From a plasmid, in the NCBI RefSeq assembly GCF_054482595.1, contig NZ_JBTHVH010000001.1: 64,000 nt of DNA; one strand, given 5' to 3'. Numbering within the stretch: position 1 is the first letter of the stretch; each line of letters starts with the position of its first letter. The position numbers and the translations under genes are program-made. Shown here piece by piece: positions 3,410 through 25,228 of the stretch. The notes below the pieces were generated by a model that ran no database searches, had not been told where the DNA came from, and saw only the letters and a program-made list of their open reading frames with translations.

Positions 3410-4672
3410 ATGAGCACTTCAGCACAAAACCAATCAATCGAAAATGTATGTATCCCTGATGTCCTGAATGCCGGTATCCCGGCCATTATCCAGAACATCC
3501 GGGCCGCGCAACGCCGCGTTAGTTGTGATGACCTCACAGCACGTTTTTTTGATAATGCGGTTCAGTCAGCGGAGATGCTTCACGCACAGCTTATTGATGT
3601 TTATAACGCAGAAGCTGATAGCCATAACTCCCTGGTAGATGCAGCTGAAAATATGCAGTTGGATCTCGGTCTGAAGGGTAAAGAAATTGAAGAGCTTCAG
3701 CTGCAAATTGAACATTTGAAACGCCAGCAACAGGACGCGATCGACGATGCGACGCATGACGCCAACCAGCGTGCTGATAATGCCGAACGTATAAGCATTG
3801 AGCTGGAAACAAAACTCAATGAAATGACCGCGATGGTTGAACTGCGGAACTCACAGATTTCAACGCTAAAATCTCAATATAAAGAGATCATGAAACTTGA
3901 TCCTTTTAACCTTGAGAAACGCTATAACAAAGCTAAAAGCGAGCGACAGGAACTGCGTAAGCAGGTCGCCGACCTTAACCAACAGCTCAAAAAAACTATT
4001 AAAGATGCAAGCGAAGCGCGCGTGGCATTTGCTAATAAAAAAGCAGAGGTTACCGCGCTGGTTAATGAGAATGCCAAATTTGCGACGCTCAAGAAGGAAA
4101 TGTATGGCATTACTGAGCGCCGTTTCCCTGCAAGCAAACTTCATCCGACGTTAGGGCAAATCTCCTTCTTCCCGCGCCTCCTGGCTTATGGGATCTCATC
4201 GCCTAAAGAGTTCAATAACGAGCGTCCTTATATCGTTTCTAAACTGGACTTTGCTTATCAGTTCTGCTGCGACATGGGCTATGCCATTGATATCCGAATC
4301 AACGAATGGTTGATGCCAAACTTCCAGCCGCTGGCCATTTTCCGCGAGTTCCAGCCGGAAGGTTGGGTAGAGTTCTTCCATGAATTGATCTGTAAAGAGA
4401 TGGAAAGCCGCCGCCCGGAACTGGTCCGCCGTGTCGAGTGGGCGCAAGAGGTTATGTTGGCAGATGCAGAGCTGCCGTTCGAACCGGAATTTATTGATGA
4501 TCTGGCAGCTAAAGGGCTGCATACCCTGTTTGATGTGGTTACCCGCCGTCATGAGCAGTTGGTTGTCGAATTGGGTTTAGAGGAAACAGCGGCAAGAAGA
4601 CTTCTCGATGTTTGCTATGCACGTAGCGATGCATGGGAAAAAGAGAACGGCGGCACTATTTACGTTCGCTGA
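3410..4672 (+). CDS. coiled-coil protein (420 aa)
   Basis: Long ORF, heptad-rich central region (EELQLQIEHLKRQQQ...), followed by terminator. Confidence 0.6.
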   Translation: MSTSAQNQSIENVCIPDVLNAGIPAIIQNIRAAQRRVSCDDLTARFFDNAVQSAEMLHAQLIDVYNAEADSHNSLVDAAENMQLDLGLKGKEIEELQLQIEHLKRQQQDAIDDATHDANQRADNAERISIELETKLNEMTAMVELRNSQISTLKSQYKEIMKLDPFNLEKRYNKAKSERQELRKQVADLNQQLKKTIKDASEARVAFANKKAEVTALVNENAKFATLKKEMYGITERRFPASKLHPTLGQISFFPRLLAYGISSPKEFNNERPYIVSKLDFAYQFCCDMGYAIDIRINEWLMPNFQPLAIFREFQPEGWVEFFHELICKEMESRRPELVRRVEWAQEVMLADAELPFEPEFIDDLAAKGLHTLFDVVTRRHEQLVVELGLEETAARRLLDVCYARSDAWEKENGGTIYVR

Positions 4673-4693
4673 CAGTTACAGTGTCACTTTTAA

Positions 4694-4728
4694 TGCTGGT
4701 GGAGTGCGCCCACCAGCATTTTTTTCGT
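4694..4728 (+). terminator. Rho-independent terminator
   Basis: gctggtgg agtgcgc ccaccagc hairpin followed by attttttt. Confidence 0.55.
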
Positions 4729-4744
4729 CCAATGAGGAGGGCAT

Positions 4745-5251
4745 TTGAGTATTTTCAATAAACACGCACACCAGGAACGTCCGTATATCGTCATAGTTGA
4801 TATTGATGGAACAATATCAGAGGCAACTGAAGACAGACTGCATTTGCTTCCGCCACCAGGTAAAGGTGCATTAACAAAGGACTGGAACGAGTTTAATCTC
4901 GCCTGTGACACCGATACTCCCATCACTCCAGTTATTGATATGGTGCGCCAGTTATTTAACGTTTACACGGTCTGGTTTGTAACCGGGCGCTGTGAGATCG
5001 CAAGGGATAAAACACGAGCCTGGCTGCGGAAGTACGTAACAAACGGGGCTGAGCCTTTGCTATCTATGCGTCCTGCCACCGATGACAGAAATGACGGCCC
5101 AGCAAAGATTGATCTCCTTAAGAAAATTGGTCTAAGTAAAATCGCGTTCGCGCTGGAAGATAAGATTGAAGTGGCGCGTGTTTTCAGGAGGCACGGCGTG
5201 CTTACGTTAATGGTCAGGGAGTATGAAAATGCGCTTCTTCATCAACAATGA
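4745..5251 (+). CDS. HAD-superfamily phosphatase/nucleotidase-like protein
   Basis: TTG start with AGGAGG SD; VDIDGTI (DxDGT) motif near N-terminus. Confidence 0.6.
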   Translation: MSIFNKHAHQERPYIVIVDIDGTISEATEDRLHLLPPPGKGALTKDWNEFNLACDTDTPITPVIDMVRQLFNVYTVWFVTGRCEIARDKTRAWLRKYVTNGAEPLLSMRPATDDRNDGPAKIDLLKKIGLSKIAFALEDKIEVARVFRRHGVLTLMVREYENALLHQQ

Positions 5252-5267
5252 TTGCTCTAATAAATCT
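5251..5267 (+). promoter_or_regulatory. C1 operator-like site
   Basis: ATTGCTCTAATAAATCT, 16/17 match to consensus. Confidence 0.65.
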
Positions 5268-5349
5268 TGATTTTTAAAACGGAGAAAGTGAAAATAAAAA
5301 CATGCCGCAAGGCGCGGCATGTATCCAATCAATCACAGGAGCTGAAAAT

Positions 5350-5436
5350 ATGAACACGGCATTCAAAATCATTATGGCCGCGATCTATTTCTGGCTGTTC
5401 TCTATCACTTTTGGCGGCATCGTCGCACATGGGTAA
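5350..5436 (+). CDS. candidate small hydrophobic peptide (28 aa)
   Basis: AGGAG SD 7 nt upstream of ATG; MNTAFKIIMAAIYFWLFSITFGGIVAHG; below the ORF-track size cutoff. Confidence 0.3.
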   Translation: MNTAFKIIMAAIYFWLFSITFGGIVAHG

Positions 5437-5445
5437 GGGGGATGC

Positions 5446-6174
5446 ATGAAAGGCGAAGTGAAAGAGCGCGGCATGATTTTCAACGATGAGATGGTCCGGG
5501 CCATCCTCGAAGGAAGGAAAACGCAGACGCGGCGGATAATGAAAAATCAGCCTGCGGAAGTTGGTCCAGAAGCACCAGTGATGGTTAGAAAAATTGGTGC
5601 AGGTTTTCAGTGGTACGGGGCTGATGGTGTAAGCAGTGTTTTCAATTGCCCATTTGGTATCGTCGGCGATCGAATTTGGGTTCGTGAAACATGGGCGATA
5701 TTAGGCAATGAGGATGGTTGCAGTGTGGACTGGAACGACAACCTTTGTCGTGGCGATGAGAAGAACGCAGCAAGGATTTATCGGGCCAGTTGCGAGCAAA
5801 AACCTGGTGATTACGGCTTATGGTCGATACCCGATGATGCCGACTGGAAACCTCACACTGTGAATGAAAAGTTTGATGGTGGGTGGCGTCCATCAATTCA
5901 CATGCCGCGATGGGCATCACGCATTCTGTTGGAAATTACCAACGTGCGCGTTGAACGGTTGAACGATATCAGCGAATGCGATGCAAGGGCTGAGGGCGTT
6001 CCGCCTGCTGGAAGTTTGCTTCCTGATCACCCGGGAACATTCCTTACTCCCAAGGGGGATTTCGCAATGGCCAAGGTTGCGTTCCAGCGCCTGTGGGAAT
6101 CCATCTATGGTGAAGAAAGCTGGAACGCTAATCCCTGGGTGTGGGTAATCGAGTTTAAGCGCATTCAGGAATAA
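5446..6174 (+). CDS. ASCH-like domain protein (242 aa)
   Basis: N-terminal FNDEMVRAILEGRKTQTRR resembles ASCH/PUA-like motif; good SD. Confidence 0.5.
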   Translation: MKGEVKERGMIFNDEMVRAILEGRKTQTRRIMKNQPAEVGPEAPVMVRKIGAGFQWYGADGVSSVFNCPFGIVGDRIWVRETWAILGNEDGCSVDWNDNLCRGDEKNAARIYRASCEQKPGDYGLWSIPDDADWKPHTVNEKFDGGWRPSIHMPRWASRILLEITNVRVERLNDISECDARAEGVPPAGSLLPDHPGTFLTPKGDFAMAKVAFQRLWESIYGEESWNANPWVWVIEFKRIQE

Positions 6175-6177
6175 ACC

Positions 6178-7056
6178 GTGAGTATGCATCAAGTCGTCAG
6201 CTTTTCAGGTGGACGAACATCGGCTTATCTCGTTCATCTGATGGAAGCACAGCGAAAAGCTGGCGCTAGCGTCCATTTCATTTTTATGGATACCGGCTGT
6301 GAACATCCTCTGACGTATCGCTTTATTCGTGAGGTTGTGAAGTTCTGGAACGTACCGCTAACGGTGTTGCAGGTCGATATAAATCCAGAACTTGGGCAGC
6401 CAAATGGTTATACGGAATGGGAACCAAAGGATATTCAGACGCGAATGCCGGTGCTTAAACCGTTTATGGACATGGTTAAAAAGTACGGTACGCCATACAT
6501 CGGCGGCGCGTTCTGTACCGACAGGCTAAAACTCACCCCTTTCACGAAATATTGCGATGACCATTTTGGGCGAGGGAATTACATCACATGGCTCGGTATT
6601 CGTGCGGACGAACCCCGTAGGCTGAAACCGAAACCGGGCGTCCGGTATCTTGCCGAACTGTCAGATTTTGATAAGTCGGATGTTATCCGGTGGTGGCGAA
6701 AACAACCTTTTGATTTGCAAATCCCGGAGCACCTCGGGAACTGTGTTTTTTGCATCAAAAAGTCAACGCAAAAGCTGGGGCTTGCATGTAAAGACGAACC
6801 AGGTCTGATGCGGGTTTTTAATGAACTGGTTACAGGCAAACACGTCAGGGATGGTCATCGCAGAACAGGTAAAGACGTTATGTACCGTGGCCACCTGACG
6901 CTTGACGGGATTGCCAGAATGTATGCCGACAGTGACTACAGAAATTTGTATCAGGCGATGGTGCTGGCCAAGCGGTTTGATACTGGTTCGTGTTCCGAAT
7001 CATGTGAAATCTGGGGTGACCAATTGGAGTTGAAATTCGAAGAGGTAGTGGAATGA
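6178..7056 (+). CDS. PAPS reductase-like PP-loop ATPase family protein
   Basis: SGGxxS PP-loop motif VSFSGGRTSAY; 292 aa. Confidence 0.75.
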   Translation: MSMHQVVSFSGGRTSAYLVHLMEAQRKAGASVHFIFMDTGCEHPLTYRFIREVVKFWNVPLTVLQVDINPELGQPNGYTEWEPKDIQTRMPVLKPFMDMVKKYGTPYIGGAFCTDRLKLTPFTKYCDDHFGRGNYITWLGIRADEPRRLKPKPGVRYLAELSDFDKSDVIRWWRKQPFDLQIPEHLGNCVFCIKKSTQKLGLACKDEPGLMRVFNELVTGKHVRDGHRRTGKDVMYRGHLTLDGIARMYADSDYRNLYQAMVLAKRFDTGSCSESCEIWGDQLELKFEEVVE

Positions 7057-7256
7057 CAATCGTAAAAACCCATACCGGTACCGTGATCACCAAAGATGGC
7101 CCGAAGGTAAAAAAACTGCACCAAACAGAGCGGATGTGGGTCGTTGGCAAAAACGAGTTTTACCACAAAGAAACTGGACGCCGCCACTTTGCAGAAAATA
7201 CGCGCCGTCGACTGCTGTTAGACACCATCAAGCCTATCGAGGTGAAGCATGTTTAA
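7053..7256 (+). CDS. hypothetical small protein (67 aa)
   Basis: ATGA overlap with upstream gene suggests translational coupling. Confidence 0.45.
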   Translation: MTIVKTHTGTVITKDGPKVKKLHQTERMWVVGKNEFYHKETGRRHFAENTRRRLLLDTIKPIEVKHV

Positions 7257-7488
7257 ACAGAACGAAAAGGCTATCGCTCAAATTGCTGATTATATCCCGC
7301 GTGCGTGCCGGGGTATGCAGTTGCAGGAAGCCAAAGCGCGCCTGGAGAAAAAAATTGCGCTCTATATTGATGACGGCTGTGATGCTGCTGTTCTTAACGC
7401 AGCGTTCGCGCCAGCTCTTAACAGTCATACGCGGGAGTCTTTTTTTTCGCGCATCGCAGCGCAGATCCGTAAAGGAGGCAACCAGTGA
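7249..7488 (+). CDS. hypothetical small protein (79 aa)
   Basis: ORF overlapping stop of previous gene. Confidence 0.45.
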   Translation: MFKQNEKAIAQIADYIPRACRGMQLQEAKARLEKKIALYIDDGCDAAVLNAAFAPALNSHTRESFFSRIAAQIRKGGNQ

Positions 7489-8132
7489 GCAAGATTGATT
7501 ATCAAAAGCTTCGTGAAATCGCTGAAAAAACAAAAATTGCTGGTGAAGCACCTGTAATGCCTTTCGATCAGCGAATTAATGCGCTTAACGATTTTATGAA
7601 GCACTTTTCGCCAGATATCGCGCTGGCATTGTTGGATGAACGGGAAAGAAACCAGCAATACATCAAACGCCGCGACCAGGAGAACGAGGAAATTGCGCTA
7701 ACGGTAGGGAAGCTGCGTGTTGAGCTGGAAGGCAAAGACAGCAAAATAGCCAATCTTACCGCCGAACGCGATGCTCTTCGTGAAGGTGAGATGGGCGACG
7801 CTAGGCATAGCAACACACGGGCCGCAGCTGATATCTACTTCCAACTGGTCGAGGAGTGCGAAATTCCTGCTGGCGGATCTCTGGTCGAGTACGTTGACGA
7901 TATGCGCGAGAAGCTGGAAGCCGCAGAGAAGCGCATTGCAGAGTTAGAAAGTGGTTCTCAGGCACAAAAGTTAGTTGAAGCAATCATTGTTGCGATAGAA
8001 AACGAACAGGAAAGGCTTTTTGATGAAGATTACCTAATGGATTCGAAAGAATGCATTGACGTAATTCGTGAAGAAGTAAAGCGATGGAATGATTCCCGTG
8101 CCGCTGGCATTCGCATCAACGGAGGTGAGTAG
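7485..8132 (+). CDS. coiled-coil protein (215 aa)
   Basis: GTG start with AGGAGG SD; heptad-rich. Confidence 0.55.
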   Translation: MSKIDYQKLREIAEKTKIAGEAPVMPFDQRINALNDFMKHFSPDIALALLDERERNQQYIKRRDQENEEIALTVGKLRVELEGKDSKIANLTAERDALREGEMGDARHSNTRAAADIYFQLVEECEIPAGGSLVEYVDDMREKLEAAEKRIAELESGSQAQKLVEAIIVAIENEQERLFDEDYLMDSKECIDVIREEVKRWNDSRAAGIRINGGE

Positions 8133-8304
8133 TGCGTGTGGCATGTATCGGCTTGTTACCGTACCCGACTCGTTTTTGGGCTTCTGCGCTAATTGCAAAG
8201 CCACATGTCCTGATGGCTGACAACATCATCCCGGCACCAAAGCGCCGCCATACCGGTATTGCAGCGGCACGACGAGCAGCAAAGAGACGCAGGAGAGCAA
8301 AGCG

Positions 8305-8493
8305 ATGAAAAACCGTAAAGCAAAGATTCTGTTAGTTCGTAGAAACGCTCCTGGCGTCTGGCAGTGGGTGAGACTCAGCAACCGACGGATGGGGTTAATG
8401 AAACATTACGGGATGATGGATTGTGGTTTTTGCAAAAAGCCCAGCGCGGCGCAAAACCGCTGGAAAAACCACTTGCGCACTAAAGGAGAGTGA
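8305..8493 (+). CDS. hypothetical small basic protein (62 aa)
   Basis: AGGAGA SD upstream of ATG. Confidence 0.35.
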   Translation: MKNRKAKILLVRRNAPGVWQWVRLSNRRMGLMKHYGMMDCGFCKKPSAAQNRWKNHLRTKGE

Positions 8494-8495
8494 TA

Positions 8496-9010
8496 TGGCG
8501 TTAACACACCGCGAACTCTGTCAGATTGCGTACAAGTTCCTTAAGCGCAACGGGTTCAAGGTTTGTTTTCATGACCGCTTTATAGCTGTAACCAGTACCG
8601 GAGAACAGCCAGATGCTATGGGATTCAGAAATTCAGCATCATGCCTGATAGAGGCGAAATGTTCTCGTGCTGACTTGTTGGCAGATAGAAAAAAGCGTTT
8701 TCGTAAAAATCCGTCTCTTGGAATGGGCGACTGGCGATTCTTTATTAGTGAGCCGGGAATTATTTCAATTGAGGATTTACCACCTGGCTGGGGATTACTT
8801 CACGTTGTTAACGGAAGAGTACGGAAAGTACATGGGTGGCCCAAGGGTAATTGCTGTTGGGGTAATCCTGACGATAAGCCATTTACTGGAAATAAGCAGG
8901 TTGAATGCGATTACATGTTATCTGCATTAAGGCGCATGGAGTTAAGAGGGCACCTTAATGAAATATATGACGGTGTAATTGTTAATAAGAAAGAAGGAAA
9001 CGCGGCATGA
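8496..9010 (+). CDS. hypothetical protein (171 aa), possible PD-(D/E)xK-like fold
   Basis: ATG with AAGGAGAG SD (ORF-track ORF 8423..9010 trimmed to this start); motif CLIEAKCSRAD. Confidence 0.5.
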
Positions 9011-9915
9011 TCACTATTACCAAAGAGCGACTACTGACAATCAAGCAGTGGCGCGAAACATACGGACCTGGTAGCAACGTTGTACTGCCAGCAGAAGAAG
9101 CGGAAGAACTGGCACGAATTGCTCTGGCATCGCTGGAGCAGAATGTACTATCGGGCAACTCTCCGCTTATTCCTGGTGAAGTGTTGTCCGCAATCCGGGA
9201 GGTTGCCAGGATTCGTGCCGATTTCGATGATTTTGACGGTGACAGGCGAGGTATCGGTGATTGTCTGGATGAGGCCGAGCAAGAGCTTATCGTTACCATT
9301 AACAAATATGCCAGTCAGTTGGCAGCAGAACCGATAGCGACTAATGACGTTCGAGAGCAAACAGCCGTTCCGCCAATACAGGCTGATGTCGCGCAAGCAA
9401 TTGAAAATCTCAAGCAGAAGTTAGTGGAATGCAATCGCTATAACTACTGCGCAGATGCAGTGAAGAACGTAGAGGATGCCTGCCGTGCTGTTAGCTATAG
9501 CCAAGCCGACAATCAGCCAGCATCTGGCAACCAGGCTGCCGAATCCAATCGCGGTAATGAGTGGACTGGCAATCCTGATATTGATAACGCCATCATCATG
9601 CTCGACCGCATAGATACGCTGGAAAATTGCGATGATGACCGTATTGAGGCTGTTAAGGCTGTTTTGCGTAGACTGGCTGGCAACTCTCCGGTAACTCCGG
9701 ATGGTTGGATAAGCTGTAGTGAGCGAATGCCGGATACCAAAACAGCCGTTCTTGTTGCCAGGGAGTTTGACAGGAAAGGTGACTGGCGAATGAAATGGGC
9801 GACTTACATCCCGGGGCATCCTGACGCTAATGATGGGTGGGTAATACCTGGTGCGTCGTGGATTCCATCACACTGGATGCCGCTACCAGAACCGCCGCAG
9901 GAGGTGAATCAATGA
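9007..9915 (+). CDS. hypothetical protein with DUF551-like C-terminus
   Basis: 302 aa; C-terminal DGWISCSERMPD...HWMPLPEPP resembles DUF551. Confidence 0.55.
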   Translation: MITITKERLLTIKQWRETYGPGSNVVLPAEEAEELARIALASLEQNVLSGNSPLIPGEVLSAIREVARIRADFDDFDGDRRGIGDCLDEAEQELIVTINKYASQLAAEPIATNDVREQTAVPPIQADVAQAIENLKQKLVECNRYNYCADAVKNVEDACRAVSYSQADNQPASGNQAAESNRGNEWTGNPDIDNAIIMLDRIDTLENCDDDRIEAVKAVLRRLAGNSPVTPDGWISCSERMPDTKTAVLVAREFDRKGDWRMKWATYIPGHPDANDGWVIPGASWIPSHWMPLPEPPQEVNQ

Positions 9916-9979
9916 GCTGGCCTGAAGCATTCACCACGGTAGGAATTGTGATGGCGGCAGCACTGGGTTTGTATTCAAT

Positions 9980-10231
9980 TTGTCGCTGGTGGTAACGATG
10001 GGAAAAATAACTTTTGTAGTCGAATTTGAGGATGGCAAAGAGCCACCTGTTAGCGCCAATCTTGATGTTGCTGGTGGCAGGCTTGTTTCGGTTCTATTTG
10101 GTGACTACCGAGATGACTTCTTCCAACCAGAAGAAGTTGATGTAGTGCGAGAGGCATTAAACGAGTTAAGTGTTGATAACGATGATGCTCATGCGGAAAT
10201 CATCCAAAAAATGGAACTGCTAACTCACTAA
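9980..10231 (+). CDS. hypothetical small acidic protein
   Basis: ORF only; start uncertain. Confidence 0.35.
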   Translation: MSLVVTMGKITFVVEFEDGKEPPVSANLDVAGGRLVSVLFGDYRDDFFQPEEVDVVREALNELSVDNDDAHAEIIQKMELLTH

Positions 10232-10279
10232 ATTATCAATTATGGTGCTATCACCTACGACACCGAGAGAAAATTTATA

Positions 10280-10402
10280 ATGTCAAAAGTAAATGTTTTG
10301 ATTTTTTCAGCAATTGTTGGCTTTGGTTTTACTGCCGGAGTGCAGATTTATATTACGTGGGAAAAAATCATCAACTACGCATGGAGTTGTTTTATTAAGT
10401 GA
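10280..10402 (+). CDS. candidate small membrane peptide (40 aa)
   Basis: MSKVNVLIFSAIVGFGFTAGVQIYITWEKIINYAWSCFIK; hydrophobic; below ORF-track cutoff. Confidence 0.25.
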   Translation: MSKVNVLIFSAIVGFGFTAGVQIYITWEKIINYAWSCFIK

Positions 10403-10409
10403 GGTAAGT

Positions 10410-10703
10410 ATGTGGAGAGGTAATAGTCATGGCAAAAGCCAGATGATACTTACCGAATATCAGTTTGACCATAAAACCAATAAATCACGTTCAGTATATT
10501 TGCTTCGGCACAATAGCCGCGTAAGGAATACCGTGCTGGAGCAAAATCTGACTGTTGAAATAGATAGTTACGGGGGCTTCAAGCCAACAATTTCGCTTGA
10601 TGATTTTCCTCGTGGTTTAAGCGAAAGAGAAGCAATGCTGAAATTAGCAGAATGGCTACAAAGATTAAGCATTGCTATTGAAGATAACTGGTCTGAACCT
10701 TAA
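10410..10703 (+). CDS. hypothetical protein
   Basis: ATG with GAGGTAAG SD inside ORF-track ORF 10314..10703. Confidence 0.4.
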   Translation: MWRGNSHGKSQMILTEYQFDHKTNKSRSVYLLRHNSRVRNTVLEQNLTVEIDSYGGFKPTISLDDFPRGLSEREAMLKLAEWLQRLSIAIEDNWSEP

Positions 10704-10709
10704 ATTTAT

Positions 10710-11084
10710 ATGATGACACTAAAACATTTTCTTGACCGCCCATTATGGGCGGCAGCCGCAGGCTATGACTTTAATTATATGGATTGCATGTCTTATACCG
10801 CCAATGCATACGACTATTCCTTCAGTCTGCTGCTTAATTCTTTAAGAATATTGCCGCAAACAGAAGTTGGAGAGCTTCATTTATGGCTATTGGGCTTTAT
10901 CGCGGCTGTCGTTGGTATTGCTGTATGGCCTTTTATTTTCTGGCTGGTGGCTGTTGTAGTGTGGTTTAAGTGCAAGACATACCGGAAAAAGTATTTCTTA
11001 GGTGATGGAATGACTGATATTGCCAAAATGAACATTGAAGAATGGACTAAGGAATGTGAAAAGAAATGGCGCAAAAAGAAATGA
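10710..11084 (+). CDS. putative membrane protein (124 aa)
   Basis: hydrophobic segment LWLLGFIAAVVGIAVWPFIFWLVAVVVWF. Confidence 0.5.
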   Translation: MMTLKHFLDRPLWAAAAGYDFNYMDCMSYTANAYDYSFSLLLNSLRILPQTEVGELHLWLLGFIAAVVGIAVWPFIFWLVAVVVWFKCKTYRKKYFLGDGMTDIAKMNIEEWTKECEKKWRKKK

Positions 11085-11923
11085 CCAGAATAACTGAAGA
11101 GCGCATATCAGAGATTATTTCCCGTATCGAAATGTATGGTCACGGTGCTGGATATACGGCAGATGAAGGATTGGAAATAGCCCAGCAGATGCTGGCCTTG
11201 AGACAAAAAGAGCAACATGAAAGTAATACGTGTAGATTGAATTTTGAGCATTGGCTGGAACAGCAACGCGGAAAAATCGATGTGGACTGTGGTTGTGTGT
11301 CCACTGAAACATTCATGCACTGGCTGTGGGTAGCTTACGAGGCTGGCAACTATCCGGATATTCCGGATAGTTCGGTGCCAGCGCCAGGAAAGGGCGTCAC
11401 CGGTGAACGTATCCGCATTAAGCCGCATGTTTATCGCGAACTGGTTAACCGTCTCCACGATACAGCGATCAAGTGTGCTGGCACCCAGCAATTACGAGAA
11501 AGAATTAGCCGTGTTTTGGGCGACGTTATTACACCAGATCATCATAAACAAGCCGAGAAAAGTGACCTGGAAAGGTGTCACCTTGAGGCGGCATTAAACA
11601 TTAAGCCGGGGCATACGCTTGGCATTATTGATGCACTATTGGTTCATAAGATGGCCAGGGCTTTATTGCCGCTGGTGGCTGAAAAAGAGAACGCGAGCCT
11701 CAAAAAAATGCTGTCGCGGGCGGAAAGGGAATTATCAGGCAAATTATTGCCAGAAGAACTGCCACCAGCAGATATACCAGATCGAGTGTCCCAGTGGATG
11801 AAGTCTTTTGGTTTGCCGTGGGAGGCTTTTTGGTGCTACGACCATCGCAGATGGTGTGATGAACTTGATAGCAATTTTCCCTACTTTGCGGAAGGGAACA
11901 CCTGCCCTCAATGCAGGGGATAG
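11066..11923 (+). CDS. hypothetical protein (285 aa)
   Basis: ORF; C-terminal CPQCRG Cys motif. Confidence 0.55.
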   Translation: MAQKEMTRITEERISEIISRIEMYGHGAGYTADEGLEIAQQMLALRQKEQHESNTCRLNFEHWLEQQRGKIDVDCGCVSTETFMHWLWVAYEAGNYPDIPDSSVPAPGKGVTGERIRIKPHVYRELVNRLHDTAIKCAGTQQLRERISRVLGDVITPDHHKQAEKSDLERCHLEAALNIKPGHTLGIIDALLVHKMARALLPLVAEKENASLKKMLSRAERELSGKLLPEELPPADIPDRVSQWMKSFGLPWEAFWCYDHRRWCDELDSNFPYFAEGNTCPQCRG

Positions 11924-12665: not shown

Positions 12666-13055
12666 ATGGGCTTCCCTTCTCCTGCGGCGGATTATGTTGA
12701 AAGCCGAATTTCTCTTGATCAGCAGATAATTAGACATCCTTCAGCGACCTACTTCATGCGGGCAGCTGATAGCCATCACCGTGAGGGAATATTGCAGGGT
12801 GCTTTGCTGGTGGTTGATTCCTCGCTTACTCCGGTTGATGGTTCTCTGCTTGTGTGCGCTATGGAGGGTGAATATCGCATAAAGAGATACAGGAAGTATC
12901 CGCGCCAGCACCTGGAGGACTTAAGCACCGGGAAGAAAGAGGCGTTACCAGTAGATGACGATGGATACACGGGCAGTAATGCTGTTTTTGGTGTGATCAC
13001 TCATGTCATCAATGATGCCCGAAGTGGGGAATTTGATGATTGTCCGGTTATTTAA
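12666..13055 (+). CDS. humD: UmuD'-like S24 peptidase-family SOS mutagenesis protein
   Basis: GFPSPAADYVE...HPSATYF... aligns with UmuD; 129 aa as P1 HumD. Confidence 0.85.
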   Translation: MGFPSPAADYVESRISLDQQIIRHPSATYFMRAADSHHREGILQGALLVVDSSLTPVDGSLLVCAMEGEYRIKRYRKYPRQHLEDLSTGKKEALPVDDDGYTGSNAVFGVITHVINDARSGEFDDCPVI

Positions 13056-13084
13056 GCTGCAAAGTGCTGGTGCTTTATGCCTGT

Positions 13085-13122
13085 GAAGTTTATAATTGTG
13101 TACACATAACGAGTACACGAGG
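13085..13122 (+). promoter_or_regulatory. phd-doc promoter/operator region
   Basis: TATAAT followed by palindromes TGTGTACACA and GAGTACACGAG. Confidence 0.5.
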
Positions 13123-13127
13123 TGTTT

Positions 13128-13349
13128 ATGCAATCCATTAACTTCCGTACCGCGCGTGGCAACCTTTCTGAAGTGCTCAACAATGTTGAAGCCGGGGAAG
13201 AGGTTGAAATCACCCGCAGAGGCCGTGAGCCAGCAGTAATTGTCAGCAAGGCTACTTTCGAAGCCTACAAAAAAGCGGCGCTGGATGCTGAATTTGCATC
13301 CCTGTTTGACACCCTGGACTCCACCAACAAGGAACTGGTTAACCGATAA
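13128..13349 (+). CDS. phd: Phd antitoxin
   Basis: 73-aa [17 protein letters not shown]... matches recalled P1 Phd; 1-nt overlap with doc. Confidence 0.9.
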
Positions 13350-13729
13350 TGAGGCATATATCACCGGAAGAACTTATTGCGCTTCATGATGCGAATATAA
13401 ACCGCTACGGCGGCCTGCCGGGAATGTCAGATCCGGGTAGGGCAGAGGCCATTATCGGGAGAGTTCAGGCCAGAGTTGCCTACGAAGAGATCACCGACCT
13501 TTTCGAAGTCTCCGCCACCTACCTGGTGGCTACAGCGAGAGGGCATATATTCAATGATGCCAATAAGCGTACCGCGCTAAACAGCGCGCTGCTATTTCTA
13601 CGCCGTAACGGGGTGCAGGTATTTGATTCACCTGAACTGGCAGACCTTACTGTAGGCGCTGCGACTGGCGAGATATCTGTATCTTCTGTCGCCGACACGT
13701 TACGTAGATTGTATGGTTCTGCGGAGTAG
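13349..13729 (+). CDS. doc: Doc toxin (Fic-fold kinase)
   Basis: 126 aa; Fic-like motif [11 protein letters not shown]. Confidence 0.9.
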
Positions 13730-21406: not shown

Positions 21407-21423
21407 TAATTTATTAGAGCAAT
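21407..21423 (-). promoter_or_regulatory. C1 operator (immC cluster)
   Basis: taatttattagagcaat, near-perfect reverse-complement of consensus. Confidence 0.6.
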
Positions 21424-25211: not shown

Positions 25212-25228
25212 AAATCTATTAGAGCAAT
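25212..25228 (-). promoter_or_regulatory. C1 operator-like site upstream of second icd/ant module
   Basis: aaatctattagagcaat. Confidence 0.6.

Follow-up and report, generated by a model that had tools for sequence, protein, structure and literature searches.

A small open reading frame (ORF) of 40 codons, lying between a 77-aa gene and a 97-aa gene in the window (the whole stretch of 64,000 nt of plasmid DNA that was analysed), is best read as a genuine gene of the phrog_5525 family. It would encode a helical membrane microprotein, belong to an early accessory block, be dispensable, and have come under relaxed constraint in the P1-like lineage. Taken as a whole, this reading is probable. The product is MSKVNVLIFSAIVGFGFTAGVQIYITWEKIINYAWSCFIK (40 aa), and retranslation, on the + strand, gave exactly the ORF at 10280-10402 and the peptide that an earlier note on this DNA had reported. 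The features that bear on the analysis are collected in Table 1.

Table 1. Position and character of the small ORF, its neighbours and other features of the window.
Feature	Position	Strand	Remarks
P1 C1-operator-like site, 1 mismatch	5251-5267	+	Heads the gene run 5350-11923
77-aa gene, phrog_3876	9998-10231	+	In P1-like elements, moves with the small ORF as one cassette of two genes
Leader, 48 nt	10232-10279	+	AT-rich, weakly structured; between the 77-aa gene and the small ORF
Small ORF, 40 codons + stop	10280-10402	+	ATG at 10280, TGA at 10400-10402; phrog_5525 member, predicted single long helix or single-pass membrane microprotein
Junction with next gene	10400-10412	+	Overlap of the small ORF's TGA with the SD of the 97-aa gene (ATG at 10410)
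97-aa gene, phrog_1258	10410-10703	+	Not a conserved partner of phrog_5525
124-aa gene, phrog_2638	10710-11084	+	Hydrophobic stretch LHLWLLGFIAAVVGIAVWPFIFWLVAVVVWF; SD -2.2 kcal/mol
UmuD/HumD-like ORF	12666-13055	+	By eye from translation
Phd-like ORF	13122-13349	+	By eye from translation
Doc-like ORF	13349-13729	+	By eye from translation

The window is a P1-like phage-plasmid of the SJ46 / vB_EcoM-813R1 type. Identity of the region with such elements from E. coli and Salmonella, namely vB_EcoM-813R1, SJ46 and some 300 plasmids, is 99.9-100%. Sites resembling the P1 C1 operator, with at most 3 mismatches, number 11 in the window and span 3110-38452, compared with 0.3 expected by chance. Examples are found at 5251-5267, 21407-21423 and 25212-25228, the operator consensus being, as we take it from the P1 literature, ATTGCTCTAATAAATTT. 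Such an excess establishes that the window carries a P1-type immunity circuit. The UmuD/HumD-like, Phd-like and Doc-like ORFs (12666-13729) stand in the same order as in phage P1.

In such elements the small ORF is already known as a hypothetical gene. The exact 123-nt CDS is called as a "hypothetical protein" in the GenBank phage records ON470617 and KU760857, the annotated copies being URC10368.1 (vB_EcoM-813R1, 100% identical) and J46_0090/AMR60008.1 (SJ46). In the PGAP/RefSeq plasmid records inspected, the interval is left empty. The earlier description of the ORF as missed by the ORF track is therefore right for the PGAP/RefSeq plasmid records and wrong for these two GenBank records. With the identical sequence annotated in GenBank and the family catalogued in PHROGs, the ORF cannot count as new. 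Among 5,426 complete E. coli genomes, 203 contain its DNA. In the papers searched, neither the accessions nor the PHROG id nor strings from the peptide gave a match, and neither did the Enterobacteriaceae microproteome supplements.

The earlier note also described an AT-rich spacer in which the ORF lies against the SD of the next gene, and both points hold. The 178 nt from 10232 to 10409 are 34% GC compared with 48% for the window, and the TGA stop overlaps the sequence TGAGGT (10400-10405). The low-GC zone is not confined to this spacer; it spans the next two genes too, to about 11100. Dinucleotide shuffling of the spacer produced an ATG-initiated ORF of at least 40 codons on the + strand in 187 of 5000 trials (3.7%). 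Taken alone, then, a 40-codon ORF is weakly beyond chance. AT-rich intergenic DNA, moreover, tends to encode hydrophobic (pseudo-)peptides (PMC11188072). Given this tendency and the shuffle rate, the coding decision must rest on comparative evidence.

An SD-like GAGAG at 10265-10269, within the leader, is weak: its anti-SD duplex is worth -3.0 kcal/mol, a value equalled or bettered at 36% of the ATGs in the window. Around the start, a stretch of 70 nt folds with only -6.5 kcal/mol. For the downstream 97-aa gene (start 10410), the SD is worth -9.6 kcal/mol. No stable RNA structure was detected in the small-ORF region, which folds no better than shuffled sequence (z=+0.83). An Rfam scan of the same region gave no match at E<=1, and promoter-like and terminator-like sites occur around the ORF at the background rate only. 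There is no support for explaining the spacer as purely cis-regulatory or as an sRNA.

The peptide matches phrog_5525, a 40-position PHROG profile of unassigned function, with E=1.2e-24, residues 1-40 falling on positions 1-40 of 40. phrog_5525 is a small family of hydrophobic helical proteins of temperate E. coli and Salmonella phages. Copies of identical length (40 codons) were detected by tblastn in the epsilon15-like/Uetakevirus phages EC.W1-9 and phiv142-3. The P1-like and epsilon15-like copies are 59% identical in nucleotides and 53% in amino acids over the first 36 codons (48% over 40 residues). Other annotated members include WYA78225.1 (EC.W1-9), QGF19637.1 (phiv142-3) and WP_261629295.1 (from an E. 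coli prophage). A word-indexed protein search gave only 7 close relatives, and divergent members needed an exhaustive profile search, which yielded 18 matches among 1.8 billion representatives, including more divergent members of 41-46 residues. The full set comprises 174 loci, 171 of them with the motif, and 160 loci came from two viral-contig scans. The 171 motif loci reduce to 57 distinct protein variants, almost all of 40-46 aa. Pfam, NCBIfam and PADLOC returned sub-threshold noise or nothing for the peptide, and a sequence search of the PDB returned nothing meaningful.

Comparison of these sequences shows that the phrog_5525 family is a genuine protein-coding gene, because outside the P1-like clade it has codon-position bias, a low pN/pS, strong SDs and alternative frames broken by stops. 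In the non-P1 clade the minimum numbers of changes at the three codon positions are 46/24/92, unsaturated pairs give a pN/pS of 0.17, and stops break up each of the five other frames in 30-40 of 41 haplotypes. A GGAGG-type SD lies 5-9 nt ahead of an ATG or GTG in nearly all non-P1 variants, and this strong SD is kept despite at least 10 unrelated upstream gene families. SD energies of the lambdoid copies range from -7.4 to -11.6 kcal/mol, compared with -3.0 for the window copy. When the window copy is set against distant subfamilies (31-53% amino acid identity), pS is 0.71-0.79, which is saturated, and pN is 0.30-0.45, an asymmetry not seen in other frames. For example, the comparison with a lambdoid copy gave pS 0.73 and pN 0.36 (Fisher p=0.002). 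Copies with 49% GC and with 32% GC alike retain the hydrophobic profile; since it is present at normal GC, it is not a by-product of AT-richness. Conservation of the frame in relatives, the check that had been proposed for this ORF, is borne out by a same-length open frame in 83 of 87 close loci and by the open frame in the distant subfamilies too.

Within the P1-like clade of the window the evidence is weaker. Of the 87 close loci, 83 have an ATG and exactly 40 codons, and the exceptions are two stop-loss alleles running to 47 aa, a CTG start (L033) and one extra T in a T-run (L070). The clade shows 8 synonymous and 19 nonsynonymous events, a ratio indistinguishable from neutral (p=0.23-0.5). 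Pooled pN/pS is 0.50 (omega about 0.5) and the codon-position counts are flat (8/8/10). Nonsense changes are absent, which is unsurprising (P about 0.2). Coding GC is about 32-33%, with GC3 at 28% compared with 51% in other clades. The small ORF diverges by 6-11% where the flanking genes diverge by 1-6%; in the most diverged P1-like relative, the 5' spacer differs by 29% and the small ORF by 10.6%. All 19 nonsynonymous events spare the family-invariant residues, in a test that is partly circular. A related idea, that P1-like changes avoid the positions shared with lambdoid copies, was rejected: the 18 shared positions take about 10 of the 19 events, where about 9 are expected. Length, hydrophobic profile and invariant residues have nevertheless been kept through a fall in GC3 from 51% to 28%, which argues for long protein-level constraint. 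The P1-like copy is probably functional, as judged from these comparisons, with relaxed constraint and modest or weak translation.

These same data can be read as those of a decaying relic. The family would then be real, and the P1-like copy a weakly expressed or unexpressed remnant that came with its cassette and is drifting neutrally. The neutral-like ratio of events, the pN/pS of about 0.5 and the flat codon-position counts all suit such a remnant, as do the weak SD of -3.0 kcal/mol, the lowered GC3, and the alleles with an IS1, a frameshift, a lost start or a lost stop. In several comparisons, moreover, no other segment of the block diverges as fast as the small ORF, and about a quarter of the related plasmids have another cassette. 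What makes decay unlikely is the integrity of the frame in 83 of 87 close loci, together with the untouched invariant residues (a partly circular point) and the retention of length, hydrophobic profile and motif through a compositional shift in which nucleotide identity has dropped to 59% and synonymous sites are saturated. The weak SD loses some of its force beside the accepted neighbour gene at 10710, whose SD is weaker still at -2.2. Far less credible is the reading that the ORF arose by chance in an AT-rich spacer, the true function of which would be cis-regulatory (promoter, terminator or sRNA) or confined to translational coupling into the 97-aa gene. Ribosome passage could aid that gene since the stop overlaps the downstream SD, and both the shuffle rate of 3.7% and the common occurrence of hydrophobic peptides in AT-rich intergenic sequence (PMC11188072) lend the idea some plausibility. 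The coding signature at normal GC and the phrog_5525 match, however, are not explicable by chance; no promoter or terminator signal rises above background, no Rfam match or stable fold was found, and a coupling role is in any case compatible with coding. On these comparisons the chance reading appears largely refuted and would be a very surprising outcome.

A different alternative accepts the gene and makes its product a toxic membrane peptide, akin to type I toxins or holins, which would oligomerise and depolarise the inner membrane for stabilisation of the plasmid or prophage or for lysis timing. Fewer than 60 aa with one hydrophobic helix and short termini is the general build of type I toxins (PMC12648545). 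Close helix packing could be allowed by the Gly-rich GFGxxAG block, and the plasmid-prophage also carries phd/doc. The surroundings of the gene are not those of such a toxin. Neither an antitoxin RNA family nor any other Rfam match was found, antisense promoter-like sites occur at the chance rate (5 compared with 5.7 expected), and no minus-strand terminator lies nearby. The 48-nt leader is unstructured. The start/stop overlap in L004, L088 and L089 and the strong SD of nearly all non-P1 variants amount to constitutive operon coupling, just the reverse of type I toxins, whose translation is typically under tight repression. Lysis genes are not adjacent: the neighbours are all unassigned genes of ead/DUF551 type, with no endolysin/spanin cassette. 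PADLOC gave no match. A toxin of this kind is accordingly very unlikely.

The product of the small ORF, as preferred here, is a predicted single-pass inner-membrane microprotein. The best 19-residue Kyte-Doolittle window is 1.83, at residue 7, where the usual threshold for a membrane segment is 1.6. AlphaFold2, run with a 12-sequence alignment, gave a single continuous helix over residues 3-38 with a mean pLDDT of 87.6. A short N-terminus with K3 is followed by a hydrophobic segment at about residues 6-27, which ends at W27, and by an amphipathic tail. The hydrophobic segment carries the block G14-F15-G16-x-x-[A/G]19-G20. Residues K3, G14, F15, G16, G20 and W27 are invariant across subfamilies, and A19 and W35 are nearly so. 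The earlier name of "small membrane peptide" thus stands as regards a conserved coding gene, and its membrane part is a prediction from the hydropathy of 1.83 and the AlphaFold helix.

Two further features of the peptide were considered and dropped. A conserved, one-sided helical face was not supported, the conservation moment being nonsignificant: 5578 of 10000 permutations equalled or exceeded it. Since there is no supported face, "packing interface" would be a term without direct support, and no defined interface is claimed. A lipoprotein was rejected as well: the only cysteine, C37 in A-W-S-C, is unfit for the lipobox [LVI][ASTVI][GAS]C, and Ala, Phe or Leu is found there in other subfamilies.

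The small ORF is part of a co-directional, tightly packed run of genes of unassigned function (5350-11923), in which the largest gap is 48 nt when the ORF is called and 178 nt when it is not. We infer that the C1-operator-like site heading this run is the control point of an operon that includes the small ORF. No convincing + strand terminator was found between that site and the ORF, and a promoter scan of 4600-9000 gave no sigma-70 consensus site. In lambda, ea22-region genes are among the earliest transcribed (PMC10834534). The 124-aa gene at 10710 is, from its sequence, another probable membrane protein in the low-GC block.

Two other short hydrophobic ORFs were seen in the same run. A 28-aa ORF (MNTAFKIIMAAIYFWLFSITFGGIVAHG, 5350-5436, + strand) comes after an AGGAG SD motif (caggagctgaaaatATG), just downstream of the C1-operator-like site at 5251-5267 and of a hairpin (5300-5322). 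It directly precedes a 242-aa gene at 5446 and has no PHROG match. The other, of 27 aa (MSWPEAFTTVGIVMAAALGLYSICRWW, 9912-9995, + strand), has an ATG that overlaps the TGA of a DUF551 gene (9007-9915) and a very strong SD of -11.6 kcal/mol. It follows a ...PQEV-type end and the CCGCAGGAGGTGAA junction, the slot held by phrog_5525 ORFs in lambdoid phages, and it too is without a PHROG match. In SJ46 the stretch 9912-9995 is 32% different and holds an 87-aa gene (called "eaa protein" in pSA186_4).

Exchange of genes around the small ORF is evident from close relatives. In the RCS47-type P1 phages (L092/L093; RCS47, MH422554), the cassette of the 77-aa and 40-aa genes (9998-10404) is swapped for an unrelated 93-aa gene annotated as a "putative RNA-binding protein". 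The right-hand breakpoint with these phages falls at about 10404, at the SD of the 97-aa gene, and a breakpoint at the SD of a downstream gene fits the expectation for modular exchange of accessory genes. A different cassette is found in about a quarter of related plasmids. In one plasmid, pAVS0973-B (L094, NZ_CP124473.1; 2620-3450), an IS1B is inserted after about codon 23 of the small ORF. By this natural knock-out, the small ORF is dispensable for plasmid maintenance.

Across the loci no conserved partner gene was detected, with at least 10 unrelated families upstream and at least 14 downstream; the lambdoid downstream genes are without similarity to the 97-aa gene. In lambdoid contexts the phrog_5525 gene follows genes that end in ...PQE[VS]K and are often of DUF551/Ead type. 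A conserved junction, CCGCAGGAG(G/A)..AA.T.ATG, supplies the SD there, and the start overlaps the upstream stop, as in all three fully annotated non-P1 loci (L004, L088 and L089). The boundary in its wider form, CCGCAGGAG(G/A)..AA.T.(A/G)TG, is found at 9890-9914 in the window, 2478-2503 in L004, 1024-1049 in L088 and 1939-1964 in L089. It closes upstream genes that are otherwise unrelated (C-terminus ...PQE[VS]K) and gives an SD to the small gene that follows. As a sequence it looks like a recombination linker between modules of the ea region. In L089, a DUF4224 gene and an integrase come three genes after the phrog_5525 ORF and share its orientation, a layout of the exo-xis/ea type.

Likeness to known systems is closest with the annotated phrog_5525 members, which share with the window copy the full-length HMM match, the 40 residues, the K3/GFGxxAG/W27 signature and the context of a temperate enterobacterial phage. 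The window copy differs from them in its AT-rich coding sequence, in having its own 48-nt leader and a weak SD in place of a start/stop overlap, and in its relaxed constraint. The lambda ea region (exo-xis/ead/Ea22/DUF551) offers the same neighbourhood, phrog_5525 genes coming after ...PQE[VS]K genes by way of the CCGCAGGAGGTGAA junction, and the genes of that region are mosaic, non-essential and transcribed early. The characterised ea-region proteins are soluble (the C-terminal domain of Ea22 has been solved), whereas the small ORF specifies a hydrophobic microprotein.

Enterobacteria have small membrane regulators of their own, for example MgrB, which binds PhoQ (reviewed in PMC12648545). 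MgrB/AcrZ-like regulators have in common with the small ORF a size of about 40-50 residues, one predicted TM helix and no enzymatic domain. They act by helix-helix contact with a larger membrane protein, a mode of action that by analogy would be plausible for the small ORF too. Unlike MgrB-type regulators, the small ORF is phage-borne, not chromosomal, has no conserved neighbouring partner, and shows no sequence similarity to them. Like the type I toxins (Hok/Gef, TisB, Ldr, Ibs), it lies on a mobile element and specifies a peptide that is small, hydrophobic and helical; it differs in having no antisense RNA, dedicated promoter or structured leader, and in being operon-coupled in most members. 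The resemblance to small membrane regulators and to type I toxins is one of size and build only.

The following course of events is proposed for the phrog_5525 gene. The small ORF sits in a mosaic block of accessory genes of ead/Ea22/DUF551 type, which in the window is probably read within a C1-repressed operon starting near 5250. During infection or induction the helix may insert into the host inner membrane, where the GFGxxAG block of small residues could pack on a host or phage membrane protein and modulate it, or could self-associate. Modulation of a membrane partner has a little less than an even chance of being the true action, and a self-assembling or perturbing (depolarising) peptide is doubtful indeed. 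Partner modulation is favoured over toxin-like action because of the strong operon SDs, the start/stop overlap, and the lack of an RNA antitoxin or repressive leader. The gene itself is dispensable.

A broader proposal, tentative and on balance unlikely, is that phrog_5525 proteins are a hitherto uncharacterised class of phage membrane effectors that dock through the invariant GFGxxAG block on a conserved machine of the host inner membrane. The dock might be a transporter, a DNA-entry route, the divisome or a sensor kinase. Expression would be early, and the outcome could be exclusion of competing phages or reprogramming of the host. Such effectors would constitute an autonomous one-gene module that has spread between lambdoid/epsilon15-like phages and P1-like phage-plasmids.

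For annotation, the point is that in those RefSeq records of P1-like plasmids that were inspected, PGAP does not call a real and conserved gene of 40 residues. In biological terms the small ORF is an ordinary small phage gene and adds one to the many small hydrophobic proteins that temperate phages encode in their early accessory regions. Should it turn out to have a host target, it might provide a compact tool, or prove to be a new exclusion or host-takeover factor, which at present is a reasonable guess only.
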